DNA of 64,000 nt from an uncultured Collinsella sp. (GCA_902405995.1 CABPCG010000005.1:7116-71115); one strand, 5' to 3'. Positions 1,763-58,478 are shown, counted from the stretch's first letter. Translations and numbers: made by a program. The notes: generated by a model not told the origin, from the letters alone.

Positions 1763-4700
1763 TTGCCGTCCATGCTGGATCTCAGAGTTATTTGCAAAAG
1801 GTACGTTACGCAGTCGTTTACGCAGGTAGCGCTCGACAGCGTAAGCCTGTCTTTTCGCGATAACGAGTTCGTAGCCATTCTGGGTCCCTCGGGTTCGGGT
1901 AAAACTACGATGCTCAACGTCATCGGTGGACTCGATCATTTCGATTCGGGCGATCTGCTGATCGACGGCATCTCGACCAAGGACTTCAACGACCGCGATT
2001 GGGATGCCTATCGCAATAATCGCATCGGCTTTGTGTTCCAGAGCTATAACCTCATTCCGCATCAGAGCATTTTGGAAAACGTGGAGTTGGCGCTTACGCT
2101 CACGGGCGTGGGGCATGCCGAGCGCCGCCAACGTGCGCGCAAGGCGCTCGAGGCAGTCGGTCTGGGCGAGCACGTTGACAAGCGCCCGAGCCAGCTTTCG
2201 GGCGGGCAGATGCAGCGCGTGGCCATTGCCCGCGCTCTGATCAATGACCCCGAGATTGTGCTGGCTGACGAGCCGACCGGCGCCTTGGACTCAACGACGT
2301 CCGTCCAGGTCATGGATTTGCTCAAGGACGTTGCGCGCGACCGTCTGGTCATCATGGTCACGCACAATCCTGAGCTGGCGTACAAGTACGCCACGCGCAT
2401 TGTCAACCTGGCGGACGGCAAGGTCACCGACGATTCAGATCCCTTTGATGCTGCCGAGGCCGCGCGTCGCGAGGCCAAGCCCACGCGCAAAACCTCGATG
2501 AGCTTTGTGACGGCGCTGGGGCTTTCTGCCCGAAACCTCATGACCAAGAAGGGCCGCACGGTCATGACGGCCTTTGCGGGTTCGATTGGCATTATCGGCA
2601 TTGCGGCAATCCTGGCGCTCTCCAACGGCGTAAACGACTACATCAAAAAGGTCGAGGAGGACACGCTCTCGAGCTACCCGCTCACGATTTCCAAACAAGA
2701 CTACGACCTGTCGTCCATGATGGGCGGCCATGGGGCTACCGATGAGGAGGCGTCCAAGGGCGAGGGCTCGTCCGATGACGCTACCGGTGGCAAAGCTAAG
2801 GGAACCGACAAGATCCCTGTGGTCACAGCCGTAAAGGACATGTTCGCAAGTGTTAAATCTAACGATATGACAAGCTTTAAGGCATGGCTTGACGACGGCG
2901 GCGACGGTATCGACAAAGAGGTCAACGCTATCCAGTACGGCTACGGCGTGACGCCGGTTGTCTATCGTGCGGGCAAGGGCGATGAGAAGCCTGTCCGGCT
3001 GGTGCCCAACGCTATGACCGAGGCCATGAGCGGCGGCGCAAGTTCGGCGGCAACGGTGAGCATGGATTCCATGGGAACCTCGGTCTTTAACGAGATGATT
3101 GACGACCAGAGTCTGCTCGACAGCCAGTACGATGTCGTTGCCGGCCATTGGCCTACGTCTGCCAACGAGGCCGTGATGGTGCTTTCGAGCCGCGGAACAG
3201 TGGGCGACTACACGCTCTACAGTATCGGCGCGCTGGATATCGATGAGCTTAACGACCTGGTTAACAGTGCCATGACGGCCGACGGCAAGGTCAAGACGCC
3301 CAAGACCGGCAGCGACTTTACCTACGACGATGCACTGTCCACGACGTTTAAGGTGTTGTCGCCGGCCGATGCCTATCGCAAAAACGAAGAGACCGGCATG
3401 TGGACTGACATGTCTGGCGACGCCGACTTTATGAAAACCAAGGTTGCCGACGGTATTGACGTGCGCATTGTGGGCGTGGTGCGACCCAACGAGACGGCAA
3501 ACGCGAGCGCATTGTCCCCGGGCATTGTCTATACGCATGCGCTGACTCGCCAGCTTATGGAGCGTGCTGCCGATTCGCAGATTGTGCAGGAGCAGCTTGC
3601 CCACCCCGAGACGGATGTCTTTACGGGCAAAACCTTCGACGAGCTGCAGGGCGAAGCCAAGCAGGGCGTGGATTTGGGCAGTATGTTCAGCGTAGACGAG
3701 GCGGCACTGAAGAGCGCGTTCTCTCTCGATGCATCTGCGCTCTCGGGCGCAGCCGGCGGTATGGACCTTTCTGGTCTCGACTTGTCCGGGCTGGACATTG
3801 ACCTTTCGGGTGTTGGGAGGGACATCGACTTTAGTGACATCATGGCCAAAGCGCCGGCCCCAGATTTCTCGGGCATCTTTGACGGTCTGGAACTCACACC
3901 CGAGCAAATGCAGCAGGTGGGAGCACTTGCCAACCAGCTGTTTGAGGGCTTTATGCGCTCTGATCAGTTTAAGGCGCTGTCATCCGAAGACCTTAAAGAC
4001 GCGTCAAAGCTCGCTGCCGCATTCTCGGCATATCTTGAGAATGATGCCGCAGCCCAGCAAATTTTGGCACAGCTCAAAGCGCTCGGCGGCGATGCCCTGG
4101 CCGAGCGTCTGCAGCAGGTGATGGGCGACTATGTGCAAAAGCAGCTGGCTCCGTATTTGCAGCAGTCTATGGATCAGGTGATGAAGGCGGTCAGCGAGCA
4201 GATTGCGACGACGGTATCAACCCAGCTCAAGGCGGGTGCGGCAGGGCTCATGGACCAAATGGCGACGCAGATGTCTTCGAGTTTTGCCAACCTGGCGAGC
4301 GCCATGCGCGTGGATGCGGGCGCCTTTGCTCGTGCCATCCACTTCAACATGGACGCCGAGGACCTGAGCTCGCTCATGATGAGCTATGCCAAGGCGTCGA
4401 AGCTCACCTACGACAACAATCTGACCACGTTGGGCTATGCGGACGAGGCGGACCCCATTTCGGTCAAGATTTTCCCGCGCGACTTTGAGGCCAAGGAGCG
4501 CGTGCTCGATCACATCGACGCGTACAACAAGCAGGTCAAAGCCGCTGGCCACGATGAGCAGGCAATCTCGTACACCGACTACATGGGCATCATCATGGGT
4601 TCGGTGACCGACATCGTGAACACCATCAGCTTGGTGCTCATCGCATTCGTGAGCATCAGCCTGGTCGTGAGCTCCATCATGATCGGCATCATCACCTACA

Positions 4701-5026
4701 TCAGCGTACTGGAGCGCAAAAAGGAGATTGGCATCCTACGCGCGATCGGCGCGTCGAAGCGTAACGTGGCCAACGTATTCAATGCCGAGACCTTTATCGA
4801 AGGTCTCATTGCCGGCGTCTTTGCTATTGTCGTCGTGGTGGCCGTGAGCTTTCCGGTTAATGCCTGGGCGCTTGCGGCCAAACAGGTACCCAATCTGATG
4901 AGCCTGCCCGTGCAGGATGCGCTGATGCTCATTGCAATTTCTGTGTTGCTGACGGTTGTTGCCGGCCTGCTGCCGGCTCGCAGCGCATCCAAGAAAGACC
5001 CTGTGGAAGCCCTGCGTTCCGAATAA
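1763..5026 (+). CDS. Fused ABC transporter ATP-binding protein / FtsX-family permease (MacB-like) with large extracytoplasmic domain
   Basis: Walker A GPSGSGKTT, ABC signature LSGGQMQRVAIARAL, Walker B IVLADEPTGALD; single TM after ATPase, approx 600-aa extracytoplasmic region with DLSGLD low-complexity repeat, C-terminal FtsX-like TM bundle. Confidence 0.8.
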   Translation: MPSMLDLRVICKRYVTQSFTQVALDSVSLSFRDNEFVAILGPSGSGKTTMLNVIGGLDHFDSGDLLIDGISTKDFNDRDWDAYRNNRIGFVFQSYNLIPHQSILENVELALTLTGVGHAERRQRARKALEAVGLGEHVDKRPSQLSGGQMQRVAIARALINDPEIVLADEPTGALDSTTSVQVMDLLKDVARDRLVIMVTHNPELAYKYATRIVNLADGKVTDDSDPFDAAEAARREAKPTRKTSMSFVTALGLSARNLMTKKGRTVMTAFAGSIGIIGIAAILALSNGVNDYIKKVEEDTLSSYPLTISKQDYDLSSMMGGHGATDEEASKGEGSSDDATGGKAKGTDKIPVVTAVKDMFASVKSNDMTSFKAWLDDGGDGIDKEVNAIQYGYGVTPVVYRAGKGDEKPVRLVPNAMTEAMSGGASSAATVSMDSMGTSVFNEMIDDQSLLDSQYDVVAGHWPTSANEAVMVLSSRGTVGDYTLYSIGALDIDELNDLVNSAMTADGKVKTPKTGSDFTYDDALSTTFKVLSPADAYRKNEETGMWTDMSGDADFMKTKVADGIDVRIVGVVRPNETANASALSPGIVYTHALTRQLMERAADSQIVQEQLAHPETDVFTGKTFDELQGEAKQGVDLGSMFSVDEAALKSAFSLDASALSGAAGGMDLSGLDLSGLDIDLSGVGRDIDFSDIMAKAPAPDFSGIFDGLELTPEQMQQVGALANQLFEGFMRSDQFKALSSEDLKDASKLAAAFSAYLENDAAAQQILAQLKALGGDALAERLQQVMGDYVQKQLAPYLQQSMDQVMKAVSEQIATTVSTQLKAGAAGLMDQMATQMSSSFANLASAMRVDAGAFARAIHFNMDAEDLSSLMMSYAKASKLTYDNNLTTLGYADEADPISVKIFPRDFEAKERVLDHIDAYNKQVKAAGHDEQAISYTDYMGIIMGSVTDIVNTISLVLIAFVSISLVVSSIMIGIITYISVLERKKEIGILRAIGASKRNVANVFNAETFIEGLIAGVFAIVVVVAVSFPVNAWALAAKQVPNLMSLPVQDALMLIAISVLLTVVAGLLPARSASKKDPVEALRSE

Positions 5027-5057
5027 TGTGACAAAGGGGCAGTCCCTTTGTCACATT
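5025..5057. repeat. Palindromic extragenic element family 1 copy (aatgtgacaaaggggcagtccctttgtcacatt)
   Basis: Near-perfect 31-nt palindrome overlapping ABC gene stop codon TAA; same sequence recurs at 8 or more other sites. Confidence 0.85.
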
Positions 5058-5136
5058 GGGGGCCCAATTACCGTTCGGCACGTTAAGGGTCCCCGCTCCC
5101 CGCTTAACACTTGACGAAGAATCTCCATCTTTATAT

Positions 5137-5152
5137 ACCTATCGGTAGGCAT
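5137..5152. promoter_or_regulatory. Putative TetR-type operator motif (acctatcggtaggcat) overlapping -10-like tttatata upstream of MFS transporter
   Basis: Shares CGGTAGG(C/T)AT with two motifs in the TetR/deiminase divergent region (7332-7344, 7374-7391); preceded by ttgacg -35-like hexamer at 5111. Confidence 0.35.
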
Positions 5153-5185
5153 ATAGGTTGCATTGCCGATAGAAACGGAGTAACC

Positions 5186-6466
5186 ATGACTCTCATCGCA
5201 CCAGCCGAAAAGGACCGCCCCCGTGAGAGCGGCGCATTTGCTTGGATTGTCGTTATTGCGCTCGGTTTAATGTCTGCGGGAACAACCGGCACCTACAGCA
5301 TCATTGCCGGCTCATTCATCGCTCCTGTATGTGAAGACCTGGGCTTTGACTACACTTCTTTCTCTTTCTATTTCACCGCGATTCTTCTTGGCCTTGCGCT
5401 TGGGCTTCCGCTTTTGAGTCGTTTCATTCCAAAAGTAATCGGCAAACCATGGCATATTTGCGTTGAACTCGTCCTTATTGCCGCCGGCGCCGCAATGGCG
5501 TTCTACACCGAGGTCTGGATGTTCATCGTCTCCGCCGCAGTGATCGGCATCTGCTTTTCGTTCACAACGGGTGTCTGCATGTCCGATGTCATTGACCAAT
5601 GGTTCAGTAAATCGTCTGGTCTTGCCATCGGCCTTGCGTGGGGCGTTAATTCTCTCTGCACGCTGCTATTGAGTCCTGTCATTACACTGGTCATCGAGCA
5701 GCAAGGCTGGCGTACGGGTTACATCGTACTTGCGGCCGTTTCTGCAGCCATGATATTGCCCACAAGCGCATTTATCATTCGCCTTAAGCCTTCTGATCGC
5801 AATATGCTTCCGTACGGAGAGACTACCTCCGAAACCCATGAGAGCTACAGCGCCGATGAAAAGGAAGATGTCTCTTCGGGCATGGCGCTCCGCGATGCCG
5901 CGAAAACGCCATCTTTTATTCTCTGTGCCCTTCTGCTCTGCGTGGCGCAACTCACCTGCTGCATGAACCAGCTGTTCCCGACCTATGCAAGCGAGGTCGG
6001 CTTCAATCCCATCGTGGGAAGCCTAATGGTTTCGGCGGCCTCGCTCTCCGATATTTTCCTAAATCCCTTCGTAGGCAAAACATGCGACAAGCTCGGTGCT
6101 ATTAAAGCAACGGTCGCATGGACGGGAGTCAGCATTCTTTCATTCCTACTTCTCATCTTTGGCGGAAGCAACGAGACCGTTTCCATCATCGCGGCCGGCG
6201 TAAACGACGTCATGTTCGCCATCGTTGGAACTGCAATGCCGATGATTCTCCTCTCGCTCTTCGGATCACGCGATTTTGGAAGGATCTATTCGATTATTTG
6301 CTCAGCGGGCTATGTTGTCGGAGCTTTCGGAATGCCAGTCATGATGAAGGTTTACGGTATGGCAGGGTCTTTCCAAGGAGTATTCGTCTTCTGTATCATC
6401 TGCAACCTTCTGATTGCGACATTTGCTTTAGTTTCCGGTATCCTCAATAAGACTACCGTGAAATAA
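5186..6466 (+). CDS. MFS-family transporter (paralog of 9908..11173)
   Basis: 12-TM hydrophobic profile, approx 50 percent identity by eye to second MFS ORF (shared AGTTGSYSIIAGSFIAPVCE, CCMNQLFPTYA, FGSRDFGRI motifs); ATG with GGAG RBS at 5174. Confidence 0.7.
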   Translation: MTLIAPAEKDRPRESGAFAWIVVIALGLMSAGTTGTYSIIAGSFIAPVCEDLGFDYTSFSFYFTAILLGLALGLPLLSRFIPKVIGKPWHICVELVLIAAGAAMAFYTEVWMFIVSAAVIGICFSFTTGVCMSDVIDQWFSKSSGLAIGLAWGVNSLCTLLLSPVITLVIEQQGWRTGYIVLAAVSAAMILPTSAFIIRLKPSDRNMLPYGETTSETHESYSADEKEDVSSGMALRDAAKTPSFILCALLLCVAQLTCCMNQLFPTYASEVGFNPIVGSLMVSAASLSDIFLNPFVGKTCDKLGAIKATVAWTGVSILSFLLLIFGGSNETVSIIAAGVNDVMFAIVGTAMPMILLSLFGSRDFGRIYSIICSAGYVVGAFGMPVMMKVYGMAGSFQGVFVFCIICNLLIATFALVSGILNKTTVK

Positions 6467-6520
6467 CCTGACCAACGAACTGCCCTTCAGCCCTGTCATT
6501 TGTCTCCGCAAGTTAAAACG

Positions 6521-6563
6521 AAATTGGGGCCGATTCCAACATAGCTGGAATCGGCCCCAATTT
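6521..6563. terminator. Bidirectional intrinsic terminator hairpin (17-bp perfect stem aattggggccgattcca / tggaatcggccccaatt)
   Basis: Perfect inverted repeat between convergent MFS (+) and TetR (-) genes, followed by T-rich tract. Confidence 0.6.
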
Positions 6564-6668
6564 CTATTCAACAACTTTTGCAATCATCGCGAACACGGGT
6601 TTCGAACCATTCCGCGACCCCGCAAGTCGTCGCATCGCGCTTGCCAAGGTGCCTCTGTTATTACGCGC

Positions 6669-7232
6669 CTATTTAAACATGAGTTCGACGATCCCTGCCC
6701 AAACAGCCTTTTCATCGATGTCTTCATCTTGGGCAACGGTATTGCTCGCTCCCTCAAGTACGGTGTAAAGAATCTGCACGTACAGCATGACGTCTGTTTC
6801 ATCGGAAAACGCGCCAATTTCTAGGCCATGGAGAAGGATGTCTTTAAGCGCGTCCATAGTTCGGTTGATCGCCGTTGCCTGACGTTCCTGAACTGCAGGG
6901 ATTCGATTTGCCTGAATACTGACCTCGGCCAGCACGCGACGGCGCTTTTCATCACTACGATAGCCACCTATAACCGAATTGCCGAGCTCGATAAGCGCCG
7001 CCTTGAATCCGTCCCTATCGACTATTAGCGAGTAGTCGCGCTGATAGTCGATAGTCGGAAACATACTATCTAAGAGCGTGGTGAAAATATCCTCTTTAGA
7101 GGGAAAGTAGTAGTACACCGATGGCTTGGATATACCGACACGGTCGCAGATTTTTCCAATGGACGCCTTGTCGTAACCGACTTCTGCCACAAGATCATAC
7201 ATTGCGTCCAATATTTTTCCCTTTGTGCTCAC
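6669..7232 (-). CDS. TetR/AcrR family transcriptional regulator
   Basis: N-terminal HTH signature ILDAMYDLVAEVGYDKASIGKICDRVGISKPSVYYYFPSKEDIF typical of TetR_N; divergent from deiminase gene. Confidence 0.85.
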   Translation of the reverse strand: MSTKGKILDAMYDLVAEVGYDKASIGKICDRVGISKPSVYYYFPSKEDIFTTLLDSMFPTIDYQRDYSLIVDRDGFKAALIELGNSVIGGYRSDEKRRRVLAEVSIQANRIPAVQERQATAINRTMDALKDILLHGLEIGAFSDETDVMLYVQILYTVLEGASNTVAQDEDIDEKAVWAGIVELMFK

Positions 7233-7373
7233 GCTTCACTTCTCCATTGCAAATCACTTCCGCATTGCCAACATTATTAAGAATGGCAACGGAACATCAA
7301 TTCGTGTCCAAACACGACCACTATAAACGGTGAACGGTAGGTATCGACAGGCGAATGGCAATTATACAAAAAC

Positions 7374-7391
7374 ACCTACCGAACGGTAGGT
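7374..7391. promoter_or_regulatory. Perfect palindromic operator candidate acctaccg-aa-cggtaggt (plus related direct motif gaacggtaggtat at 7332-7344)
   Basis: 8-bp inverted repeat in the 240-bp divergent region between TetR and deiminase-family gene; motif CGGTAGGTAT also upstream of MFS at 5141. Confidence 0.4.
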
Positions 7392-7471
7392 ATAGTAGTA
7401 CTATAGCTGGTGTAACCCCGCTATTGTCGCGGCCGGACAGCATTGCGGGAAACCCGACGGAAGGACCAACC

Positions 7472-8710
7472 ATGTACGAGAACTATCGTATGCCGGGCGA
7501 GTTTGAGAAGCGCTCCAACGTCTATGTGACATGGCTTCCCGATTACATTCGCGCAGAGGGCTTCGATAATCGCCAGCCCTGCGTTGACGTAATTAAAGCT
7601 TTGCTTGAGTATGGCGACGTTACGGTCAATCTCAACTGTGGCACCCCCGGCTCCTACGAGGAAGCCTGCTCGCGCCTTAAAGAAGAAGGGGTGGATCTCG
7701 ACCGTATCCAGATTACGCAGTTCGAAGACTCCAACTTCTACGTTCGCGACAACGGCCCCAGCATCATGGTCGACGACGAAGGCCATTCCTATATGGTCAA
7801 CCCCGCTTGGACCTATTATGGCGTGTGGGACAAGAACTCCCCAGAGTGCCAGTCCGCACGCAGGGCAGCTGTTCACATGGCGGTTGCGCTCGGGTGCTTC
7901 GATATCGTCAATTCCGAAATGGTTTCGGAGGGCGGCGACCGCGAGTTTGACGGTCACGGCACCCTGATCGCCATCGAGGACACGGAATGCCGCAAGCGCA
8001 ATCCCGAGTTCTCAAAAGAGGAAGTGGAGGCCGAGTACAAGCGCATCTACAACCTCAACAAGGTTATCTGGCTGCCGCAGCCTATGCTTGAGGACGACGA
8101 CTATCGACTGGGCATCCTCGACGAGAAGGAAGATGGAACTCCTGTCTTCGGCATGAGCTTCGCCGCCCACATCGATGAGATGTGCCGCTTTATCACCCCG
8201 AACAAGATTCTTCTTGCCGAGGTATCCGATGAGGAGGCCGCCTCGAGCAAGGCGGGCGCGGAATCGCATCGTCGCATCGACGCCGCCTACGAGATTCTAC
8301 GCGCCGAGACGGACTGGGAGGGCAAGCCCTTCGAAATCGTCCGCATGCCCACTGCCGAGCCGATCGAGGTTGTCATCGCTCCCGGCGACGAGGACTACGA
8401 GCTGTATAAGGGCTTCATCGACGAAATGGGCGGCAAGTTCATGGATGGCACCCCTTGGCCCGAAGGCCCCGTTCACTTTTATGCCGCAGCAAGCTACTGC
8501 AACTTCCTCATCTGCAACGGCGTCGTTCTTGGCCAGCGTTATTACCACGAAGGCATGAGCGAAGTCGTGAAGGAGAAGGACGAGCAGGCCAAGGCGGTTC
8601 TTGAGAGCTGCTTCCCCGATCGCAAGGTCATCATGATCGACTCTCTCGCGCTTAACCTGTCCGGCGGCGGCGTGCACTGCTGGACCAAGGACGTGGCCGC
8701 CAGCTGCTAG
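7472..8710 (+). CDS. Agmatine deiminase / porphyromonas-type peptidyl-arginine deiminase family enzyme (guanidino-group deiminase), approx 412 aa with insertions
   Basis: N-terminal YRMPGEFEK (agmatine deiminase hallmark), FYVRDNGP (WxRD-like), SEGGDREFDGHGT, C-terminal catalytic LSGGGVHCWTKD (GGGxHC); start chosen at ATG 7472 with GGAAGGA RBS because upstream ATG 7355 would place operator palindromes inside CDS. Confidence 0.75.
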   Translation: MYENYRMPGEFEKRSNVYVTWLPDYIRAEGFDNRQPCVDVIKALLEYGDVTVNLNCGTPGSYEEACSRLKEEGVDLDRIQITQFEDSNFYVRDNGPSIMVDDEGHSYMVNPAWTYYGVWDKNSPECQSARRAAVHMAVALGCFDIVNSEMVSEGGDREFDGHGTLIAIEDTECRKRNPEFSKEEVEAEYKRIYNLNKVIWLPQPMLEDDDYRLGILDEKEDGTPVFGMSFAAHIDEMCRFITPNKILLAEVSDEEAASSKAGAESHRRIDAAYEILRAETDWEGKPFEIVRMPTAEPIEVVIAPGDEDYELYKGFIDEMGGKFMDGTPWPEGPVHFYAAASYCNFLICNGVVLGQRYYHEGMSEVVKEKDEQAKAVLESCFPDRKVIMIDSLALNLSGGGVHCWTKDVAASC

Positions 8711-8831
8711 CAAGTTCTTAAACTTGCGCTGCCTGATCCAAGCGCCACATTTACAGTCCCCGAGGGATATCCGTGTTTCCCTCGGGGGCGCATTCGACAC
8801 TTACCCATCAAACAATTGAAAGGAAATAGGC

Positions 8832-9896
8832 ATGAACAACAGCCTTCGCGGTCGCGACTACCTCAACATCCACGATCTTTCCTCTGAGGATTTCCGTTAC
8901 CTCATCGATCTTGCCTGGAACCTCAAGGCCCAGAAAAAGTCCGGTGTCGACCAGCGCTACTTCCCCGGCAAGAACGTTCTCGCCAACTTTGAGTGGGGCT
9001 CGACCCGCACTCGTTGCGCCTTTGAGACCTCTTGCAACGACCTGGGCATGGGCTTCACCTATCTGACCAACTCCCACATGGGCGATTGCGAGACCATCGA
9101 GGATGCCATGCGCGTCTTCAACGGCATGTATGATCTCATTGTCTATCGTGCACAAAAGGACGAGCAGTTCCTCTATGATGTCGCCGACTTGGTCGATATT
9201 CCAGTCATCAATGCCCTCACCCTCGGCGATCACCCGACCCAGATGCTCGCTGACGCTCTCACGATGGAGGAGCAGTGGGGTGGTCTGCGCACGAGCCGTG
9301 GCAAAAAGATGGCCTTCGTTGGCAACTGCGCCGGCGCCCCCGTGTGGTATGGCCGTCTGTGCGCGATGCTCGACATGGACTTCCTCGCCATCGGCCCCGA
9401 CGACCTCCGTCACCAGATGTGCAAGGAAATGATCGAGGAGGTTGAGGCCTGCTACGCCAAGTACGCGCCTAACAGGACCTTCACCATCACCTCTGACCTT
9501 GATGCTCTGGACGGTGTCGACGTAATCGTTACCGAGGAGTGGCGCTACATCAACCCCGAGTGCGGCGACGAGGTTCTGGACCCTGACGACTACAACTCTT
9601 GGCTTGGCGACGCCGAGTCCCTGTACCCCTATCGCGTCACCAGTGAGCTGTGCAAGCGCACCAACAACCCCGACATCTTCTGCATGCACGAGCTCCCCTC
9701 TGTTCACAACGCAAATCACCGCGTTGGCAAGATGTTGCTCGACCAGTGCAAGAACGACCTGCATCGTGAAATCATCACCGAGGGCTTTGAGATTGCGGAC
9801 GAGTGCTTTGAGGCCAACGCGTCGGTCATCTTCCGTGAGGCAGAGAACCGTCAGCACACCATCAAGGCCGTTATGTGCGCCCTTCTGGGTCTCTAG
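8832..9896 (+). CDS. Ornithine/putrescine carbamoyltransferase-family enzyme with variant substrate-binding motifs (HELP instead of HCLP; no SMG loop)
   Basis: STRTRCAFE carbamoyl-phosphate motif, HPTQMLADALTMEE, C-terminal AENRQHTIKAVM all conserved relative to OTCases; substrate loops read TEEWRYINPE and FCMHELP. Confidence 0.75.
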   Translation: MNNSLRGRDYLNIHDLSSEDFRYLIDLAWNLKAQKKSGVDQRYFPGKNVLANFEWGSTRTRCAFETSCNDLGMGFTYLTNSHMGDCETIEDAMRVFNGMYDLIVYRAQKDEQFLYDVADLVDIPVINALTLGDHPTQMLADALTMEEQWGGLRTSRGKKMAFVGNCAGAPVWYGRLCAMLDMDFLAIGPDDLRHQMCKEMIEEVEACYAKYAPNRTFTITSDLDALDGVDVIVTEEWRYINPECGDEVLDPDDYNSWLGDAESLYPYRVTSELCKRTNNPDIFCMHELPSVHNANHRVGKMLLDQCKNDLHREIITEGFEIADECFEANASVIFREAENRQHTIKAVMCALLGL

Positions 9897-9907
9897 GAGC
9901 TGTATCA

Positions 9908-11173
9908 ATGGAAAATGCAAAGTTAAAGAGCAGCAAGGTTTACGCATGGGTTCTCGTGATCGCGCTCGGCCTCATGTCTGCCGGTACGACCGGATCCTAT
10001 AGCGTAATCGCTGGCTCCTTCGTCGCGCCCGTGTGCGAGGAGTTCGGATTTGACTACTCCATCTTCTCGTATTACTTCACTGCAACGCTCATTGGTCTTG
10101 CAGCGGCTCTTCCGTTTGTCGGAAAACTCATCCCCAAGGTTGTTGGCAAGTTTTGGCTCCCCGTCGTCGAGCTTATTCTGCTCGCCGCTGGCGCAGGCAT
10201 GGCCTTCTACACCGAAGTCTGGATGTTCATCGCAGCTGGTGCTTTGATTGGCGTTTGCTTCGCCTTCACTACCGGCGTCGCCATGTCCGATGTTATTGAC
10301 CAGTGGTTCAAAAAATCTGGCGGCCTGGCAATTGGTCTCGCTTGGGCAGTGAACTCGATTTACATGCTCATCATGAGTCCCGTCATCACCTCTGTCATTG
10401 AGGCTGCTGGCTGGAGGACTGGTTATCTGGTGCTCGCTGGCGTCTCCGCCGTGCTCATTCTTCCCGCTTCCATCCTGATTATCCGCTATAAGCCCCAGGA
10501 CAAGGGCATGCTGCCCTATGGCTATGTCGAAGGCGAGACGGTCGCCGAGACCGAGGAGACGACCGAGGATAGTGCACGTGGCGTTAGCTACGCACGCGCT
10601 ATTAAGTCGCCTGCATTCTTTTTCTGCATCGGCTTCCTCTGCCTCGTTCAGCTTACTTGCTGCATGAACCAGCTGTTCCCCACCTATGCCGCCGAGGTCG
10701 GCTTTAGCCCCATGGTGGGTGGCTTCATGGTTTCCGCCGCATCGCTGTTCGACCTGTTCCTCAACCCGATCGTCGGTACCACTTGCGATAAGTTTGGCAG
10801 CACCAAGGCCATTCTGAGCTGGCTCGCCGTCTCGATTCTCTCCTTTGTCATGCTCATGATGAGCAGCGGCAACTCGACGCTCAGCATTCTTGCTGCCGGT
10901 GTTAACGACGTCATGTACGTCATCGCCGGCACCGCTCTGACCGTTTTGGTGATGGACGTCTTTGGCTCCCGTGACTTTGGTCGCATCTTCGCGCTCATCT
11001 GCTCCGTGGGCTATATCGTCGGCGCCTTTGGCATGCCCGTCATGATGAAGGTATACGAGCTTGTCGGCTCCTTCCAGGGCGTTTTCATCTTCTGTATTGC
11101 ATGCAACGTCATCATCGGTCTGTTCTTGCTGCTGGCAAAGAAGACTGGTAAGAGCCTCTCTTGGGACGAATAG
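9908..11173 (+). CDS. MFS-family transporter (paralog of 5186..6466)
   Basis: Shared motifs with first MFS ORF; 12 predicted TM segments; ATG with GGAGC RBS. Confidence 0.7.
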   Translation: MENAKLKSSKVYAWVLVIALGLMSAGTTGSYSVIAGSFVAPVCEEFGFDYSIFSYYFTATLIGLAAALPFVGKLIPKVVGKFWLPVVELILLAAGAGMAFYTEVWMFIAAGALIGVCFAFTTGVAMSDVIDQWFKKSGGLAIGLAWAVNSIYMLIMSPVITSVIEAAGWRTGYLVLAGVSAVLILPASILIIRYKPQDKGMLPYGYVEGETVAETEETTEDSARGVSYARAIKSPAFFFCIGFLCLVQLTCCMNQLFPTYAAEVGFSPMVGGFMVSAASLFDLFLNPIVGTTCDKFGSTKAILSWLAVSILSFVMLMMSSGNSTLSILAAGVNDVMYVIAGTALTVLVMDVFGSRDFGRIFALICSVGYIVGAFGMPVMMKVYELVGSFQGVFIFCIACNVIIGLFLLLAKKTGKSLSWDE

Positions 11174-11223
11174 TTCGATTCGTCTTAGTCATACGCTGTA
11201 GGAGTTAATCTGCAGCAGCTTTA

Positions 11224-11252
11224 GGGCATCGGCTAACGCCGGTGCCCTTTTT
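11224..11252 (+). terminator. Intrinsic terminator (gggcatcggc taac gccggtgccc + TTTTT)
   Basis: GC stem-loop followed by T5 run 50 nt after MFS stop. Confidence 0.6.
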
Positions 11253-18634: not shown

Positions 18635-21472
18635 CTATAGCGAAACGGATCCGTATTTCTTGATACAGGCGAGTATGTTTTTGAGCTTGCTAAAGTCGAG
18701 CGGTTTGGGCAGATGGGCGTTCATACCGGCATCGTGTGCCGCCTTGGCGTCTTCGGCAAAGGCGTTGGCGGTGAGCGCGATGATGGGGATGTCGGCCGCA
18801 TCGGCCTTTTCGCTCAGGCGGATCGCGCGGGTTGCCTCGTAGCCGTCCATGCCCGGCATCATGATGTCCATAAGAATCGCATCGAAGCTACCCGCGGGAC
18901 GGCCAACGTATAGGTCGACCGCTTCGTTGCCGTCGGCGGCGCGAGTTACGACGATGCCCTCGCTTTCGAGCAGAGCCTGGGCAATCTCGGCATTGAGCTC
19001 GTTATCTTCTGCCAAAAGAACGTTCATGTCTGCAAGCGAGCAACTGTATGCCTGCTCGTCCGTACGTTCTTTTGCCTGAGGGTTCTTGTCGATCTCGAGC
19101 GGAATCTGGACGTTAAACGTACTCCCCACGCCAACCTCACTCGAAATCTCAATCGTGCCGCCCATCATATCGATGAGTGATTTGACGATAGACATGCCAA
19201 TGCCGGTTCCTTGGAACTTGCTGCGCGCATCGTCGCCTTCCTGGGCAAACGGCTCGTAAATGTGTGCCAAAAACTCGGATGTCATACCAATGCCGGTATC
19301 CGAGACGCTAAAGCAAAACGCGGCGTGCTCGTCGTCGACCGGTTTGATGGTCGATGAGAACGTGACGGTGCCTCCGTGCTTGTTGTACTTGATGCTGTTG
19401 TCGAGCAGGTTGACAATGATCTGCCGAATATGGGTGGGGCTGCCGATCATATATTGGTCGACAGCGTAGGGCTCGCTGGTGTCGAGCATGGTTATGCCGC
19501 GGTCCGATGCGCGGAGCTTGCACAGTACGAGCGCATTGTCGCACAGCTCTTTAAGGTTGAATGATTCGTGCTCGAGTGTCACTTTGCGCTCCTCGATCCT
19601 GCCCATCTCGAGGATGTCGTTAATCAGTGACAGCAGGTGATTGGCGGCAACGCGCGCCTTGGCGCGGCTTTCGCGGGCGACCTGCATGTCGCCTTCTCTC
19701 AATTCCTCAATTTCGATAAGACCCAGGATGCCGTTGAGCGGCGTGCGGATGTCGTGGCTCATGCGCGTGAGGAAAGCGGTTTTGGCGGCGTTGGCGGCAT
19801 CAGCTTTCTGCCGTTCTGTCTGTGCGCGGTAAAGCGACCAGACAAGGATGATGATGCCGGTGAGCAAAATGCAGATGACGACTGCCGCAATGACGATGCG
19901 GTTGCGGTAGAGAAGTCGGAACGCATCCGATTCTTGCGCCGAGTACGATGTGGGGAAATAGCTGTTTGCAGAGAGCGATTCACCTGCATTGACGATGCCC
20001 TTATTGATGATTCCCAGCAGCTCGGGCTTGCCGCGCGAAATTAAACACGATAGTTGCGCCGTGTTGGTGAGTTCCTGTGTTTCGAAATCCTCGATGTCGT
20101 AGATGTCGCGGAGAGTTTCCAGGCGCGTGCTGGAGACAATGATGCAACGTGCCTTCCCCTCATTGAGGGCTTTGAGCACCTCGCCGTCATTCGAATACTC
20201 GGTTACCGTTGCGTTCGGAAAGAGACTTTCGAGCTCAAAACGGTTAACGATTGTGCTCTTTGTACAAGCGATGTTCTTAAGGTCGCTGTTCAGGTTTTTG
20301 CCACTGTGAATGGCGGTCAGCGAAACCGTTCCCATCGAGTTTGACTGGATGACCCCTGTCTGCTCGGCGAGCCAGTAGTCGCGAAACAACGGCAGGGCGA
20401 CATCGATGGTCCCGTTGGAAAGGGCTTTGATCATTTGTTTGTTGCTCGAGAGTGCGATTGTTTTGACCGTAATGCCAAACTTGTCGTGCAACGTCGTTGC
20501 AAGCGAGGCGAGCGACCCTTCCATCTCGCCGTCGTCATTTTGCGTACAGTAGGGAAGTTGGTTTTTAAGATAGCCGAGCGTGATGGTATTGCCGTTTGCT
20601 TTGAGCCAGGTGGTCTCGGGGCCGGTGAGCGATGACGAGCCACTGTTTTGGGTCGAGTAACTCGATTTGACTTCCTCGTTATAGCGCGGGTTATCGCGGG
20701 CGATGGTCGTCATGGCGGCGTTGATGTCGTTCATCAGATCGGGGCGGCTTTTGGGAACGGCAAAATAGTAGTCGCTCGAGCCTACGTAGAACATGGGTGA
20801 CGCATCGGGCGACGAAATGGTGTCGTTCATGATGACGGCGTCGACCTCGCCGTCTGCAAGCGCCTCAAAGAGGGCACTGCCGGTGTCGATTTCTTTATAG
20901 GTGCAGGTGACGCCTTCGTCGGCGAGCCACTGCTGGCCGACGATAGTTTGCATAACGCCAGAGTTGCAGCCGATGGTGAGGCCTTGGAGCGCCTGGGGGT
21001 CACCCTTGGCCAGATCGTCGCGGTCGGGCCTGGCGTAGATGTAGTAGCGCTCGGTGCCCTCGGGGTTCGAGGAAAAGAGCAGCTTCTGCTCGCGTTCTGC
21101 CGAATACGAGATGTTGGGCATGAGGTCGATTTCGCCTGCTTCGAGCATGTCCATAAGCTCGGAGAAGGTGCCGCTAACGTATTCGTATTGCCAGCCCTTT
21201 GTGTAATACGAGAGGGTCTGGAGGTACTCGTAGCCCCACCCCGAGAGTCGCTCGCCCGGCATGCCTTCCTGGAAGCCTTTGTTGTTGACGAGCCAGCCAA
21301 CGCGGACCGTCTTGACCTGCTGGTCGGAGTCGGCGGCAAAGGCGGGGGCGGGCATGACGGCGCTCAGTATGGCGAGCGCGGCAAGCGCGACGGCCAGGGT
21401 GCGATATAGAGCCAAGCGAAAGACAGCGGAAGGTTTCACATGAAATCCTATCGAGTTGAGACAGTTTCGCAT
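18635..21472 (-). CDS. Hybrid sensor histidine kinase/response regulator with N-terminal signal peptide and two periplasmic solute-binding (SBP_bac_3-like) domains
   Basis: HisKA H-box LTRMSHDIRTPLNGILG, HATPase DTGIGM..GTGIGMSIV, receiver LLAEDNELN..DIMMPGMDG, two periplasmic PBP-like segments, one TM. Confidence 0.85.
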   Translation of the reverse strand: MRNCLNSIGFHVKPSAVFRLALYRTLAVALAALAILSAVMPAPAFAADSDQQVKTVRVGWLVNNKGFQEGMPGERLSGWGYEYLQTLSYYTKGWQYEYVSGTFSELMDMLEAGEIDLMPNISYSAEREQKLLFSSNPEGTERYYIYARPDRDDLAKGDPQALQGLTIGCNSGVMQTIVGQQWLADEGVTCTYKEIDTGSALFEALADGEVDAVIMNDTISSPDASPMFYVGSSDYYFAVPKSRPDLMNDINAAMTTIARDNPRYNEEVKSSYSTQNSGSSSLTGPETTWLKANGNTITLGYLKNQLPYCTQNDDGEMEGSLASLATTLHDKFGITVKTIALSSNKQMIKALSNGTIDVALPLFRDYWLAEQTGVIQSNSMGTVSLTAIHSGKNLNSDLKNIACTKSTIVNRFELESLFPNATVTEYSNDGEVLKALNEGKARCIIVSSTRLETLRDIYDIEDFETQELTNTAQLSCLISRGKPELLGIINKGIVNAGESLSANSYFPTSYSAQESDAFRLLYRNRIVIAAVVICILLTGIIILVWSLYRAQTERQKADAANAAKTAFLTRMSHDIRTPLNGILGLIEIEELREGDMQVARESRAKARVAANHLLSLINDILEMGRIEERKVTLEHESFNLKELCDNALVLCKLRASDRGITMLDTSEPYAVDQYMIGSPTHIRQIIVNLLDNSIKYNKHGGTVTFSSTIKPVDDEHAAFCFSVSDTGIGMTSEFLAHIYEPFAQEGDDARSKFQGTGIGMSIVKSLIDMMGGTIEISSEVGVGSTFNVQIPLEIDKNPQAKERTDEQAYSCSLADMNVLLAEDNELNAEIAQALLESEGIVVTRAADGNEAVDLYVGRPAGSFDAILMDIMMPGMDGYEATRAIRLSEKADAADIPIIALTANAFAEDAKAAHDAGMNAHLPKPLDFSKLKNILACIKKYGSVSL

Positions 21473-26220: not shown

Positions 26221-26435
26221 AGCGGCTCCTTAGCTGTTGGGCTACACGTGTATATAACCGGTAAGCACAGTATATATACACTATGCACAGTTACGCAAGA
26301 GACAAATTCGGATTGGGCCGGCTACCCAGGCCCCAACTGATGAATTTGTCCTGATAGGTGCCCTATGGCGGGATTTGGCGGCTACAATAATGCGGTTACA
26401 ACGACGTAATGCACTCAATGCAAGAAAGGATCCGC

Positions 26436-28049
<1,614 letters not shown>

Positions 28050-58274: not shown

Positions 58275-58308
58275 TAGAAAAGGGGCGCTGTGCATAGACA
58301 GCGCCCCT
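58275..58308 (-). terminator. Riboswitch expression-platform terminator (GGGGCGCUGU-CUAUGC-ACAGCGCCCC + UUUUCUAU)
   Basis: Perfect 10-bp GC stem followed by U-run on minus strand between TPP aptamer and thiM RBS. Confidence 0.7.
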
Positions 58309-58321
58309 AAAAAGGCGGCAT

Positions 58322-58412
58322 GCTCCCTACGCCAGCATTAACTGACAGGTTCAAAGGATTGGGCCCCATGCCCTCTCAGCCTTGTGGTTTGCACCGCCGG
58401 CACTCCCGCATC
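58322..58412 (-). ncRNA. TPP (THI-box) riboswitch aptamer
   Basis: Minus-strand sequence GGAGUGCC...GCUGAGAGG...CCUUUGAACCUGUCAGUUAAUGCUGGCGUAGGGA matches THI-element consensus (CUGAGA, ACCUGAUC-like, GCGUAGGGA). Confidence 0.85.
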
Positions 58413-58478
58413 GAATCTGTTGTTCCCTATACTAGCGCATCGGTACAATGGTTACGATGAAAACGACTGGGGGACCCT

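Follow-up and report, generated by a model that had tools for sequence, protein, structure and literature searches.

Organization of the Cassette

The DNA analyzed in this study is a 64,000-nucleotide stretch from an uncultured Collinsella sp. (GCA_902405995.1, CABPCG010000005.1:7116-71115), referred to as the window. It contains a cassette of five genes that encode an MFS transporter (MFS1), a TetR-family regulator, a deiminase, a carbamoyltransferase (CTase) and a second MFS transporter (MFS2), respectively (Table 1). Their order and strands were described in an initial annotation made from the sequence, together with the motifs YRMPGEFEK and GGGVHCW of the deiminase and STRTR, HPTQ, HELP and TEEWRYINPE of the CTase. 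All of these were borne out by the translations and by the Pfam domains, which are MFS_1, TetR_N, PAD_porph, OTCace_N plus OTCace, and MFS_1 in gene order. To our knowledge, only two routes consisting of a deiminase, a carbamoyltransferase and a carbamate kinase are established, those for arginine and agmatine. In non-saccharolytic gut and oral bacteria, both serve as major systems for energy and acid resistance. Our results support the view that the cassette encodes a deiminase pathway with new enzyme sub-families, which is abundant in human-gut Actinomycetota.

The starts of three genes, those for the deiminase, MFS1 and MFS2, were corrected. Because the deiminase homologs are 409–417 amino acid residues long, begin with M-x-E-x-(Y/F)-R and cover only 91% of the long open reading frame, the deiminase gene starts at the ATG at 7472, which is preceded by GGAAGGA, and not at 7355 as initially annotated. 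Even with the corrected start, the deiminase is about 45 residues longer than the solved agmatine deiminases, as had been proposed. The starts given in Table 1 for MFS1 and MFS2 are the most likely ones. A GGAG lies 7–8 nucleotides before the putative ATG of MFS1, and the predicted MFS2 has the same length as its Eggerthella ortholog.

Table 1. Predicted genes and regulatory features of the cassette (positions counted from the first letter of the window).
Feature	Position	Strand	Description
MFS1	5186..6466	+	MFS transporter, 426 aa, own transcription unit; PF07690 113.8 bits
TetR-family repressor	6669..7232	-	187 aa, divergent from deiminase operon; PF00440 51.4 bits
Guanidino-group deiminase	7472..8710	+	412 aa, pentein fold, agmatine-deiminase-like but distinct family; PF04371 179.8 bits
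CTase, new sub-family	8832..9896	+	354 aa; FEWGSTRTR, NSH, GNC, TEEWRY plus 17-residue loop insertion, HELP
MFS2	9908..11173	+	Operonic MFS transporter, 421 aa; PF07690 117.1 bits
Operator O1	5132..5155	.	Imperfect palindrome TATATACCTATCGGTAGGCATATA, 31 nt upstream of MFS1 start
Operator half-site	7335..7344	+	CGGTAGGTAT, TetR/deiminase divergent promoter region
Operator O2	7374..7391	.	ACCTACCGAACGGTAGGT, perfect palindrome with 8-bp arms ACCTACCG-AA-CGGTAGGT, 81 nt upstream of deiminase start
Bidirectional terminator	6520..6564	.	20-bp stem between MFS1 and 3' end of TetR gene
Intercistronic stem-loop	8756..8789	+	12-bp GC-rich stem between deiminase and CTase genes, without U-tract; spacer z = -3.2
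Intrinsic terminator	11223..11248	+	11-bp stem then T-run, end of deiminase-CTase-MFS2 operon

The Carbamoyltransferase

The CTase has the two-domain transcarbamylase fold (PF02729, 121 bits; PF00185, 71 bits). Its carbamoyl-phosphate ligands are all conserved with those of ornithine carbamoyltransferases (OTCases), which include S57-T58-R59-T60, R106, H134 and Q137 of H134-P-T-Q137, H286, L288, P289 and R340. The ornithine ligands of OTCases were taken from a transcarbamylase review (PMC4581275), and every one of them is altered in the CTase in the alignment with OTCases. K53 of the FxKxSTRT motif, which pairs with the alpha-carboxylate of ornithine, is replaced by W55 (FEWGSTRTR). The two asparagines of GDxxNN are deleted (VGNC-AGAP), the DxxxSMG loop reads TEEWRYINPE and the 240's loop contains a 17-residue insertion. 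D231 of OTCases is replaced by E235, S235 and M236 by Y and I, and C273 by E287, which changes HCLP to HELP. E235 is aligned with D231 of OTCases and D227 of putrescine carbamoyltransferases (PTCases), and the acidic residue at this position is invariant.

The CTase scored below the cut-offs of the NCBIfam models for OTCases (NF003286, 237 vs. 515 bits; TIGR00658, 194.9 vs. 280.85 bits), PTCases (TIGR04384, 156.7 vs. 500 bits), aspartate carbamoyltransferases (94.9 vs. 237 bits) and YgeW (51 vs. 500 bits). Of the five published traits of PTCases, the STRT motif is shared, and the other four, which are a Gln before STRT, a (Y/W)(G/W)(V/L/I)x motif, HCLP and the C-terminal helix 13 (PMC3282769), are all absent. 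The residue two positions before STRT is W55, where PTCases have Gln. The 230-loop of PTCases, DVW(Y/W)(G/W)(V/L/I)x, is about 40 residues before HCLP, whereas TEEWRYI of the CTase is 52 residues before HELP. The C-terminal extension of PTCases, i.e., about 20 residues that form helix 13, is also missing: the C-terminus of the CTase is flush with those of OTCases (...ALLGL), and the last helix of its AlphaFold2 (AF2) model (pLDDT 93) ends at residue 352. Moreover, the model is nearer to OTCases (Foldseek TM 0.86, 31–34% identity) than to the PTCase of Enterococcus faecalis (TM ~0.80, 27–28% identity). The CTase is derived from long-form OTCases and not from PTCases. The residues reported at the variable position of the HxLP motif are C, P, D, A/V, S and T, with no E or M (PMC4016543), and neither HELP nor HMLP is listed in the published tables of this motif (PMC4016543; PMC4581275).

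Among the 120 best CTase homologs, three sub-clades share the T-E-x-W and H-[EMQ]-L-P motifs. Clade A (TEEWRY...HELP), whose members are 65–99% identical to the CTase of the window, includes the homologs from Eggerthella sinensis, E. guodeyinii, E. hominis, a Slackia multispecies entry, Adlercreutzia, an E. lenta metagenome-assembled genome (MAG), Gordonibacter sp. An230 and Lactobacillus sp. YT155. Clade B (TEEWEY or TECWIY...HMLP) includes those from A. equolifaciens, Raoultibacter, Rubneribacter, S. isoflavoniconvertens and Eggerthella sp. YY7918, and clade C (TENWG(D/F)F...HMLP; 340–377 residues) those from Angelakisella, Enterocloster asparagiformis and a Clostridium species. At the position two before STRT, clades A and B have W, whereas clade C has M; where the CTase of the window has HELP, the sister clades have HMLP or HQLP. 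In a neighbor-joining (NJ) tree that contained the family and 27 representatives of OTC-like proteins, the family was monophyletic in 100 of the 100 bootstraps and had a long stem. This phylogeny, a check proposed in the initial annotation, placed the CTase outside of both PTCases and OTCases. Clade C and clades A plus B were each supported by 100% and the HELP-containing clade A by 87%. Because clade A is nested within an HMLP grade, HELP is the derived state and HMLP the ancestral one.

A phmmer search against 1.84 billion 50%-identity representatives found only three full-length clusters of this family, which scored 831, 414 and 284 bits, respectively, followed by the best ordinary OTC-like protein with 202 bits. 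The public names of the family members are only "ornithine carbamoyltransferase" or "hypothetical protein." A motif scan of a genome collection with the universal STRTRC and HPTQMLA motifs returned mostly ordinary OTCases and at least five true family loci, and is not an estimate of distribution; among the matches listed, at least four Collinsella MAGs carry the CTase at 97–99% identity. One CTase homolog, P0078, has an N-terminal half similar to clade A and a C-terminal half of a canonical OTCase (DVWVSMG and HCLP). It probably arose as a chimera during metagenome assembly, or possibly by natural recombination.

The Deiminase

The catalytic residues of the deiminase, D93 (RDxG), H233, D235 and C403, are invariant among 34 homologs. 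D208 is likewise invariant among them and is aligned with Asp220 of the Medicago AIH (MtAIH), which hydrogen-bonds the terminal amine of agmatine (PMC6447857). Directly after D208 and before the catalytic His, there is a family-wide insertion of 20 residues (G-x-L-D...D-G-x-P-V-F/Y...S), predicted to form an ordered beta-hairpin just ahead of the catalytic His (AF2 model, pLDDT 94). In known enzymes, the segment at this site sets the recognition of the distal end of the substrate. The best Foldseek matches to the model are solved agmatine deiminases (2JER, 6NIB and 2EWO; TM 0.72–0.75, 22–27% identity). They are the only close matches, with PPAD next and DDAH far behind. The deiminase, however, scored below the cut-offs of the AguA equivalog models (TIGR03380, 147.6 vs. 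381.8 bits; NF010070, 147.5 vs. 483 bits). As judged from its sequence and predicted structure, the deiminase is catalytically complete and has an agmatine-deiminase-like fold, yet falls outside of the AguA equivalog. An ordinary agmatine deiminase (AgDI) operon, which the initial annotation had allowed for, is not what these scores describe.

More than 4,600 sequences from public assemblies are members of the cluster to which the Collinsella deiminase belongs. Distant relatives (~48% identity) from Bacillus mycoides and Romboutsia stand alone. For instance, the B. mycoides locus (CP036132.1, 7038-10365) encodes a lone family member of 413 residues without a CTase, which is flanked by genes for a MerR/GyrI-like regulator and an AmiS/UreI-type amide/urea channel. 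These neighbors hint at a small neutral ureido product or a detoxification role for this branch of soil Bacillus.

Conservation of the Cassette and Its Association with Carbamate Kinase

The genes for a TetR regulator, the deiminase, the CTase and a transporter were found together in all 10 CTase-linked architectures examined, which were from Coriobacteriia, a Lactobacillus and Clostridia. A divergent TetR gene followed by the genes for deiminase, CTase and MFS was found in L003, L090, L092 and the E. lenta-like loci L094-L099. In L091, the order is deiminase, CTase, MFS and TetR, and in L001 of Eggerthella sp. YY7918 it is TetR, flavodoxin, CTase, MFS, deiminase and TetR. The locus of Lactobacillus sp. 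YT155 (L088) contains a divergent TetR gene and those for deiminase, CTase, MFS and carbamate kinase. The clade C loci L005/L006 contain the genes for TetR, CTase, an NhaC-type transporter, deiminase, carbamate kinase and a Gate-domain protein, and L093 those for TetR, CTase, deiminase, an NhaC-type transporter and MFS, with a carbamate kinase gene 4.5 kb away. Thus, carbamate kinase is operonic in two architectures (L088 and L005/L006) and nearby in a third (L093). The ATP-yielding route considered in the initial annotation is strengthened by this operonic carbamate kinase in Lactobacillus sp. YT155 and a Clostridia clade. The TetR of the window is 44–49% identical to those flanking the cassette in L003, L088, L090 and L094, and the TetR proteins of these loci are orthologs. 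No further catabolic enzyme was conserved beside the cassette in the loci examined. This would be expected if the product amine leaves the cell, as it does in the arginine deiminase (ADI) and AgDI systems, which show the same pattern.

A canonical ADI cluster was found in Collinsella aerofaciens (L066, 1807-9994), where two copies of arcA are accompanied by a gene for a YfcC/DcuC-type carrier, arcB and two nearly identical copies of arcC. Its arcB product possesses FEKTSTRTR, DVWVGMG and HCLP. There is one assembly gap (a run of N) after the second arcC.

MFS1 and MFS2 are 63% identical over 416 residues, in agreement with the initial description of the two genes as paralogous. MFS2 is 50–67% identical to the cassette MFS of L088, L003, L094 and L090, to which MFS1 is less similar. 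MFS2 is orthologous to the single cassette MFS of other hosts, and MFS1 is its duplicate in the Collinsella lineage. Both proteins resemble monocarboxylate (lactate), oxalate-formate and bile-salt carriers most, with scores of 78–104 bits vs. cut-offs of 320–400 bits. Deducing the substrate from this similarity was rejected, because the matches to the MFS models are far below the cut-offs.

Regulation

A CGGTAGG(T/C)AT motif had been suggested to be shared by the upstream regions of the MFS1 and deiminase genes. It was found at 5143, 7335 and 7384, i.e., in three copies in the two promoter regions of the cassette, vs. 0.17 expected by chance per window, and lies within two palindromes, O1 and O2. 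O1 overlaps a possible -10 element, which was read by eye (TTGACG at 5111-5116, a 17-nucleotide spacer and TATACC at 5134-5139). A fourth exact copy of CGGTAGGTAT, at 26722-26731 on the minus strand inside the RF3 gene (26409-28049), was judged to be most likely due to chance.

The operator core, TACC-N-GGTAGG, is kept from Collinsella to Lactobacillus and was found in the TetR-deiminase spacers of the clade A loci L003, L007, L088, L090, L094 and L011. For instance, a site nearly identical to O1, TATATACCTGTCGGTAGGTATATA, is ahead of the orthologous operon of Lactobacillus sp. YT155. The operators of L003 and L090 are ACCTACCGAACGGTCGGTAG and TATACCGACCGGTAGGTAAA, respectively, and that of L094 and Gordonibacter L011 is TTACTTACCGGTAGGTAA. 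A degenerate version is upstream of the clade B operon L001. Because the site and its TetR are conserved together across two phyla, there is strong in silico support for a dedicated pair of TetR repressor and operator, by which MFS1 and the deiminase-CTase-MFS2 operon would form a single regulon. The earlier suggestion of one TetR regulon is likewise strengthened by the same operator before the orthologous operons of Lactobacillus and several Coriobacteriia.

The transcription units of the cassette are bounded by the two terminators listed in Table 1. The hairpin initially noticed between the two enzyme genes was recovered as the intercistronic stem-loop. Sequence-unrelated, strong GC-rich hairpins were also found in the deiminase-CTase spacers of L003 (9896-10000), L090 (9255-9348) and L094 (7913-8000), all three of which are loci of high-G+C Coriobacteriia, and are absent where this spacer is short. 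Partial termination or differential mRNA stability would be plausible functions. No riboswitch, for guanidine or otherwise, was found near the cassette in an Rfam scan of the window and four relatives.

Genomic Surroundings

The genes flanking the cassette, which encode a fused ABC/FtsX transporter, a hypothetical protein, a DUF3592 protein and Dus, are unrelated to it. The G+C content is 50–53% across positions 5000-8000, which cover the MFS1 and TetR genes and the 5' half of the deiminase gene, vs. 58–60% in the flanks, and the nearest non-Collinsella relatives of the cassette are from Eggerthellaceae and one Lactobacillus. The low G+C content and these relatives suggest that the cassette was acquired horizontally. 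No mobile-element genes were seen adjoining it.

Directly upstream of the cassette, an unusually long fusion of ABC ATPase and FtsX permease (1763-5026, plus strand; 1087 residues) has a large low-complexity center, and its gene is closed by a hairpin at 5029-5057. At a distance of 7 kb from the cassette, and with no evident connection to it, an amino-acid-type sensor is encoded (18635-21472, minus strand). It is a hybrid kinase of 945 residues, in which SBP_bac_3-type solute-binding domains in the periplasm are combined with HisKA/HATPase and a receiver domain. In addition, a thiamine pyrophosphate riboswitch (RF00059) is at 58307-58417 on the minus strand (56.4 bits vs. a gathering threshold of 54.3 bits), presumably upstream of a thiamine-related gene on this strand.

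Proposed Pathway and Alternative Explanations

The gene content and motifs of the cassette, the separation of its enzyme families, the conservation of the cassette and its operator, and the linkage to carbamate kinase in relatives were observed directly. Because the deiminase is catalytically intact, the CTase is competent for carbamoyl phosphate and their genes are repeatedly linked to those for carbamate kinase and transporters, the cassette very probably encodes a catabolic route in which a guanidino compound is turned first into a ureido compound and then into an amine and carbamoyl phosphate, the latter of which yields ATP. The guanidino compound would be imported by one or both MFS transporters, probably in exchange for the amine product. 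The deiminase would hydrolyze the guanidino group to a ureido group with the release of NH3, and phosphorolysis of the ureido compound by the CTase would give carbamoyl phosphate and the free amine. From carbamoyl phosphate and ADP, a carbamate kinase whose gene would lie elsewhere in the Collinsella genome would then produce ATP, NH3 and CO2. The substrate or the ureido intermediate may free TetR from the TACC-N-GGTAGG operators before MFS1 and the deiminase operon. In this scheme, we infer the direction of flux, the antiport, the identity of the inducer and the nature of the substrate.

Arginine is excluded as the substrate, because the deiminase is of the wrong family and all ornithine ligands of the CTase are gone. 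The lack of the carboxylate-pairing Lys and the presence in both enzymes of an invariant acidic residue for a distal ammonium group (D208 and E235) favor a cationic guanidine without a carboxylate. A substrate other than agmatine is suggested by the failure of both enzymes to match the AguA and PTCase definitions, the insertions in both recognition segments and the derivation of the CTase from OTCases. The extra acidic residues of clade A, E236 and E287, also count against agmatine as the physiological substrate. The most likely substrate is a cationic guanidine that lacks a free alpha-carboxylate and is related, but not identical, to agmatine. We estimate a probability of roughly 60% that the cassette represents a third, uncharacterized deiminase pathway with such a substrate. 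The initial suggestion of an agmatine-deiminase-like route with a non-canonical carbamoyltransferase, acting on agmatine or an undescribed guanidino compound, is supported by these results. No characterization of this deiminase-CTase pair was found in the literature searched, which covered deiminases of guanidinobutyrate, guanidinoacetate, guanidinopropionate, homoarginine and taurocyamine, clusters of deiminase and carbamoyltransferase, and transcarbamylase reviews.

Several points weigh against this pathway and its substrate. The substrate is reached only by exclusion and analogy, and the retained D208 and E235 would be equally compatible with agmatine itself. The evidence for co-occurrence of a canonical AgDI system and the cassette is at the level of the genus Eggerthella. 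The three sub-clades of the CTase differ in their 240's loops, so they may not have one common substrate. The likeness of the MFS proteins, a weak indication, would fit a pure cation less well than a substrate with a carboxylate, which keeps guanidino acids in play. Finally, no carbamate kinase is encoded in the 64-kb window, as was noted initially: tblastn with the carbamate kinase of a related operon gave a best E-value of 2.5. By analogy with other Collinsella genomes, the enzyme is plausibly available in trans in the genome of the window.

The alternative that survives best is an analogous agmatine pathway, in which agmatine would be converted to N-carbamoylputrescine and then to putrescine and carbamoyl phosphate, with MFS in place of AguD and TetR in place of AguR. 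Each relative of the deiminase with a solved structure is an agmatine deiminase, and the deiminase keeps the acidic residue aligned with the one that binds the amine of agmatine. The CTase keeps the acidic residue equivalent to D231/D227 and lacks the carboxylate-pairing Lys, the same logic by which PTCases are separated from OTCases (PMC3282769). In addition, similar gene pairs are called aguA and ptcA by KEGG-style annotation (S8 table, PMC10234575). Nevertheless, we consider this alternative rather unlikely. All four PTCase traits beyond STRT are absent, both enzymes are far below the cut-offs of TIGR04384 (156.7 vs. 500 bits) and AguA (147.6 vs. 381.8 bits), the CTase is structurally closer to OTCases (TM 0.86) than to PTCase (TM 0.80), and the insertions of both enzymes are exactly in their substrate-recognition segments. 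Moreover, Eggerthellaceae already use a canonical AgDI system: E. lenta, the best-studied Eggerthella, has a ptcA/APC-permease/aguA operon that is induced by agmatine (PMC10234575). The presence of this system in E. lenta and of the CTase family in Eggerthella species argues against simple redundancy. The E. lenta genes ELEN_RS11005-15, a "second AgDI operon" reported not to be induced by agmatine (PMC10234575), were considered as a copy of the cassette and rejected. They probably encode a canonical PTCase paralog, because RS11010 is ptcA according to PGAP and is listed as induced in the supplementary table.

A second alternative is that the cassette serves nitrogen scavenging, acid resistance or guanidine detoxification and not ATP synthesis, with carbamoyl phosphate being used for pyrimidine or arginine synthesis or left to decay. 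It would account for the lack of carbamate kinase in the window and most Coriobacteriia cassettes as well as for the distant deiminases that stand alone, such as that of B. mycoides with its regulator and channel neighbors. It is quite improbable, however, given that two independent architectures have carbamate kinase in the operon and a third has it close by, that a phosphorolytic CTase and not an amidohydrolase is the hallmark of an energy-conserving route, and that arcC is available in Collinsella. That the CTase is anabolic and makes a ureido or guanidino metabolite, e.g., a natural-product precursor, similar to the transcarbamylases of 2,3-diaminopropionate (DPTCase) and 2,4-diaminobutyrate (DBTCase), is extremely improbable, for although an acidic HxLP residue (HDLP) is known only from these two biosynthetic enzymes (PMC4581275) and a trio of E. 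lenta genes annotated as arcB, argF and aguA, which may correspond to the cassette, is associated with a metabolite of mass 254.137, biosynthetic genes are not linked to the cassette, and a hydrolytic deiminase, exchange-type transporters and carbamate kinase constitute a catabolic signature.

The E. lenta trio is strain-variable (16 of 30 strains) and associated with ~100-fold higher levels of supernatant features (S6 Table, PMC10234575). Their m/z values are 255.144, 238.117 (-NH3), 277.127 (Na adduct) and 293.100 (K adduct), with two isomers (PMC10234575), and the neutral mass fits C11H18N4O3. A protein from an E. lenta MAG is in clade A of the CTase family; the trio may be the cassette, but the association is a lead only.

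Compared with these alternatives, a third deiminase pathway for a guanidine related to agmatine is preferred. There is about an even chance that the claim holds in full, i.e., that the transcarbamylase and the deiminase have new specificities for a guanidine that is neither arginine nor agmatine and constitute a third deiminase pathway of substrate-level phosphorylation that is widespread in gut Coriobacteriia. Its hosts may include Collinsella, Eggerthella, Slackia, Adlercreutzia, Gordonibacter and Raoultibacter as well as some lactobacilli and Clostridia, and the three CTase sub-clades might serve different guanidines. Undiscovered catabolic transcarbamylases were anticipated in a 2015 review (PMC4581275). 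If the claim is true, a new specificity would be added to the transcarbamylase family, and abundant gut Actinomycetota would consume an unrecognized guanidino nutrient or host- or diet-derived metabolite. It would also correct the systematic mis-annotation of these proteins as "ornithine carbamoyltransferase," "agmatine deiminase" or "hypothetical protein," and provide a ready-made TetR/operator pair, whose inducer would identify the substrate.

Comparison with Known Systems

Similar to the AgDI system of E. faecalis (aguR-aguBDAC), the cassette combines a pentein deiminase, a phosphorolytic CTase and a transporter in what is predicted to be an inducible operon, to which carbamate kinase is added in some relatives, and its deiminase shares the fold and catalytic residues of AguA. 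Different from the AgDI system, however, its CTase is not a PTCase, and its deiminase, which scores below the AguA cut-off, is about 45 residues longer and contains the 20-residue hairpin insertion. Moreover, both of its transporters are MFS_1 proteins (an NhaC-type transporter and a Gate-domain protein in clade C) vs. the APC antiporter AguD, its regulator is TetR vs. the LuxR-type AguR, and carbamate kinase is not encoded in this window.

With the ADI pathway (arcABCD), the cassette shares a CTase of the long-form/catabolic OTCase lineage and the proposed conversion of carbamoyl phosphate to ATP via carbamate kinase. However, its deiminase belongs to the PAD_porph/AguA family and not to ArcA, the ornithine-binding residues of its CTase are all replaced or deleted, and Collinsella possesses a separate canonical ADI cluster (L066).

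Similar to PTCase (PDB 4A8H/3TXX), the CTase is an unknotted transcarbamylase of the OTC branch that lacks the Lys two positions before STRT and has an acidic residue opening the 230/240 loop. The two differ in the residue before STRT (W, or M in clade C, vs. Q), the loop (TEEWRYI plus 17 residues vs. DVWYGLY), the HxLP motif (HELP/HMLP vs. HCLP) and helix 13, which is missing in the CTase. Among the OTC-branch enzymes described, only DPTCase and DBTCase, which function in the biosynthesis of viomycin, zwittermicin and padanamide, have an acidic HxLP residue (HDLP) and a replacement of the Asp of DxxxSMG. Unlike the CTase of the cassette, they are anabolic, belong to natural-product clusters, keep (T/S)RWQ(T/S)(T/M)G and are not linked to a deiminase or carbamate kinase.

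Finally, YgeW and UGTCase differ from the CTase in that YgeW is knotted (its model gives the CTase 51 bits), UGTCase is on the ATCase branch, and their ureido substrates come from purine degradation and not from a deiminase. Similar to the role proposed for the CTase, however, both are catabolic transcarbamylases tied to carbamate kinase, through which a ureido compound yields ATP.

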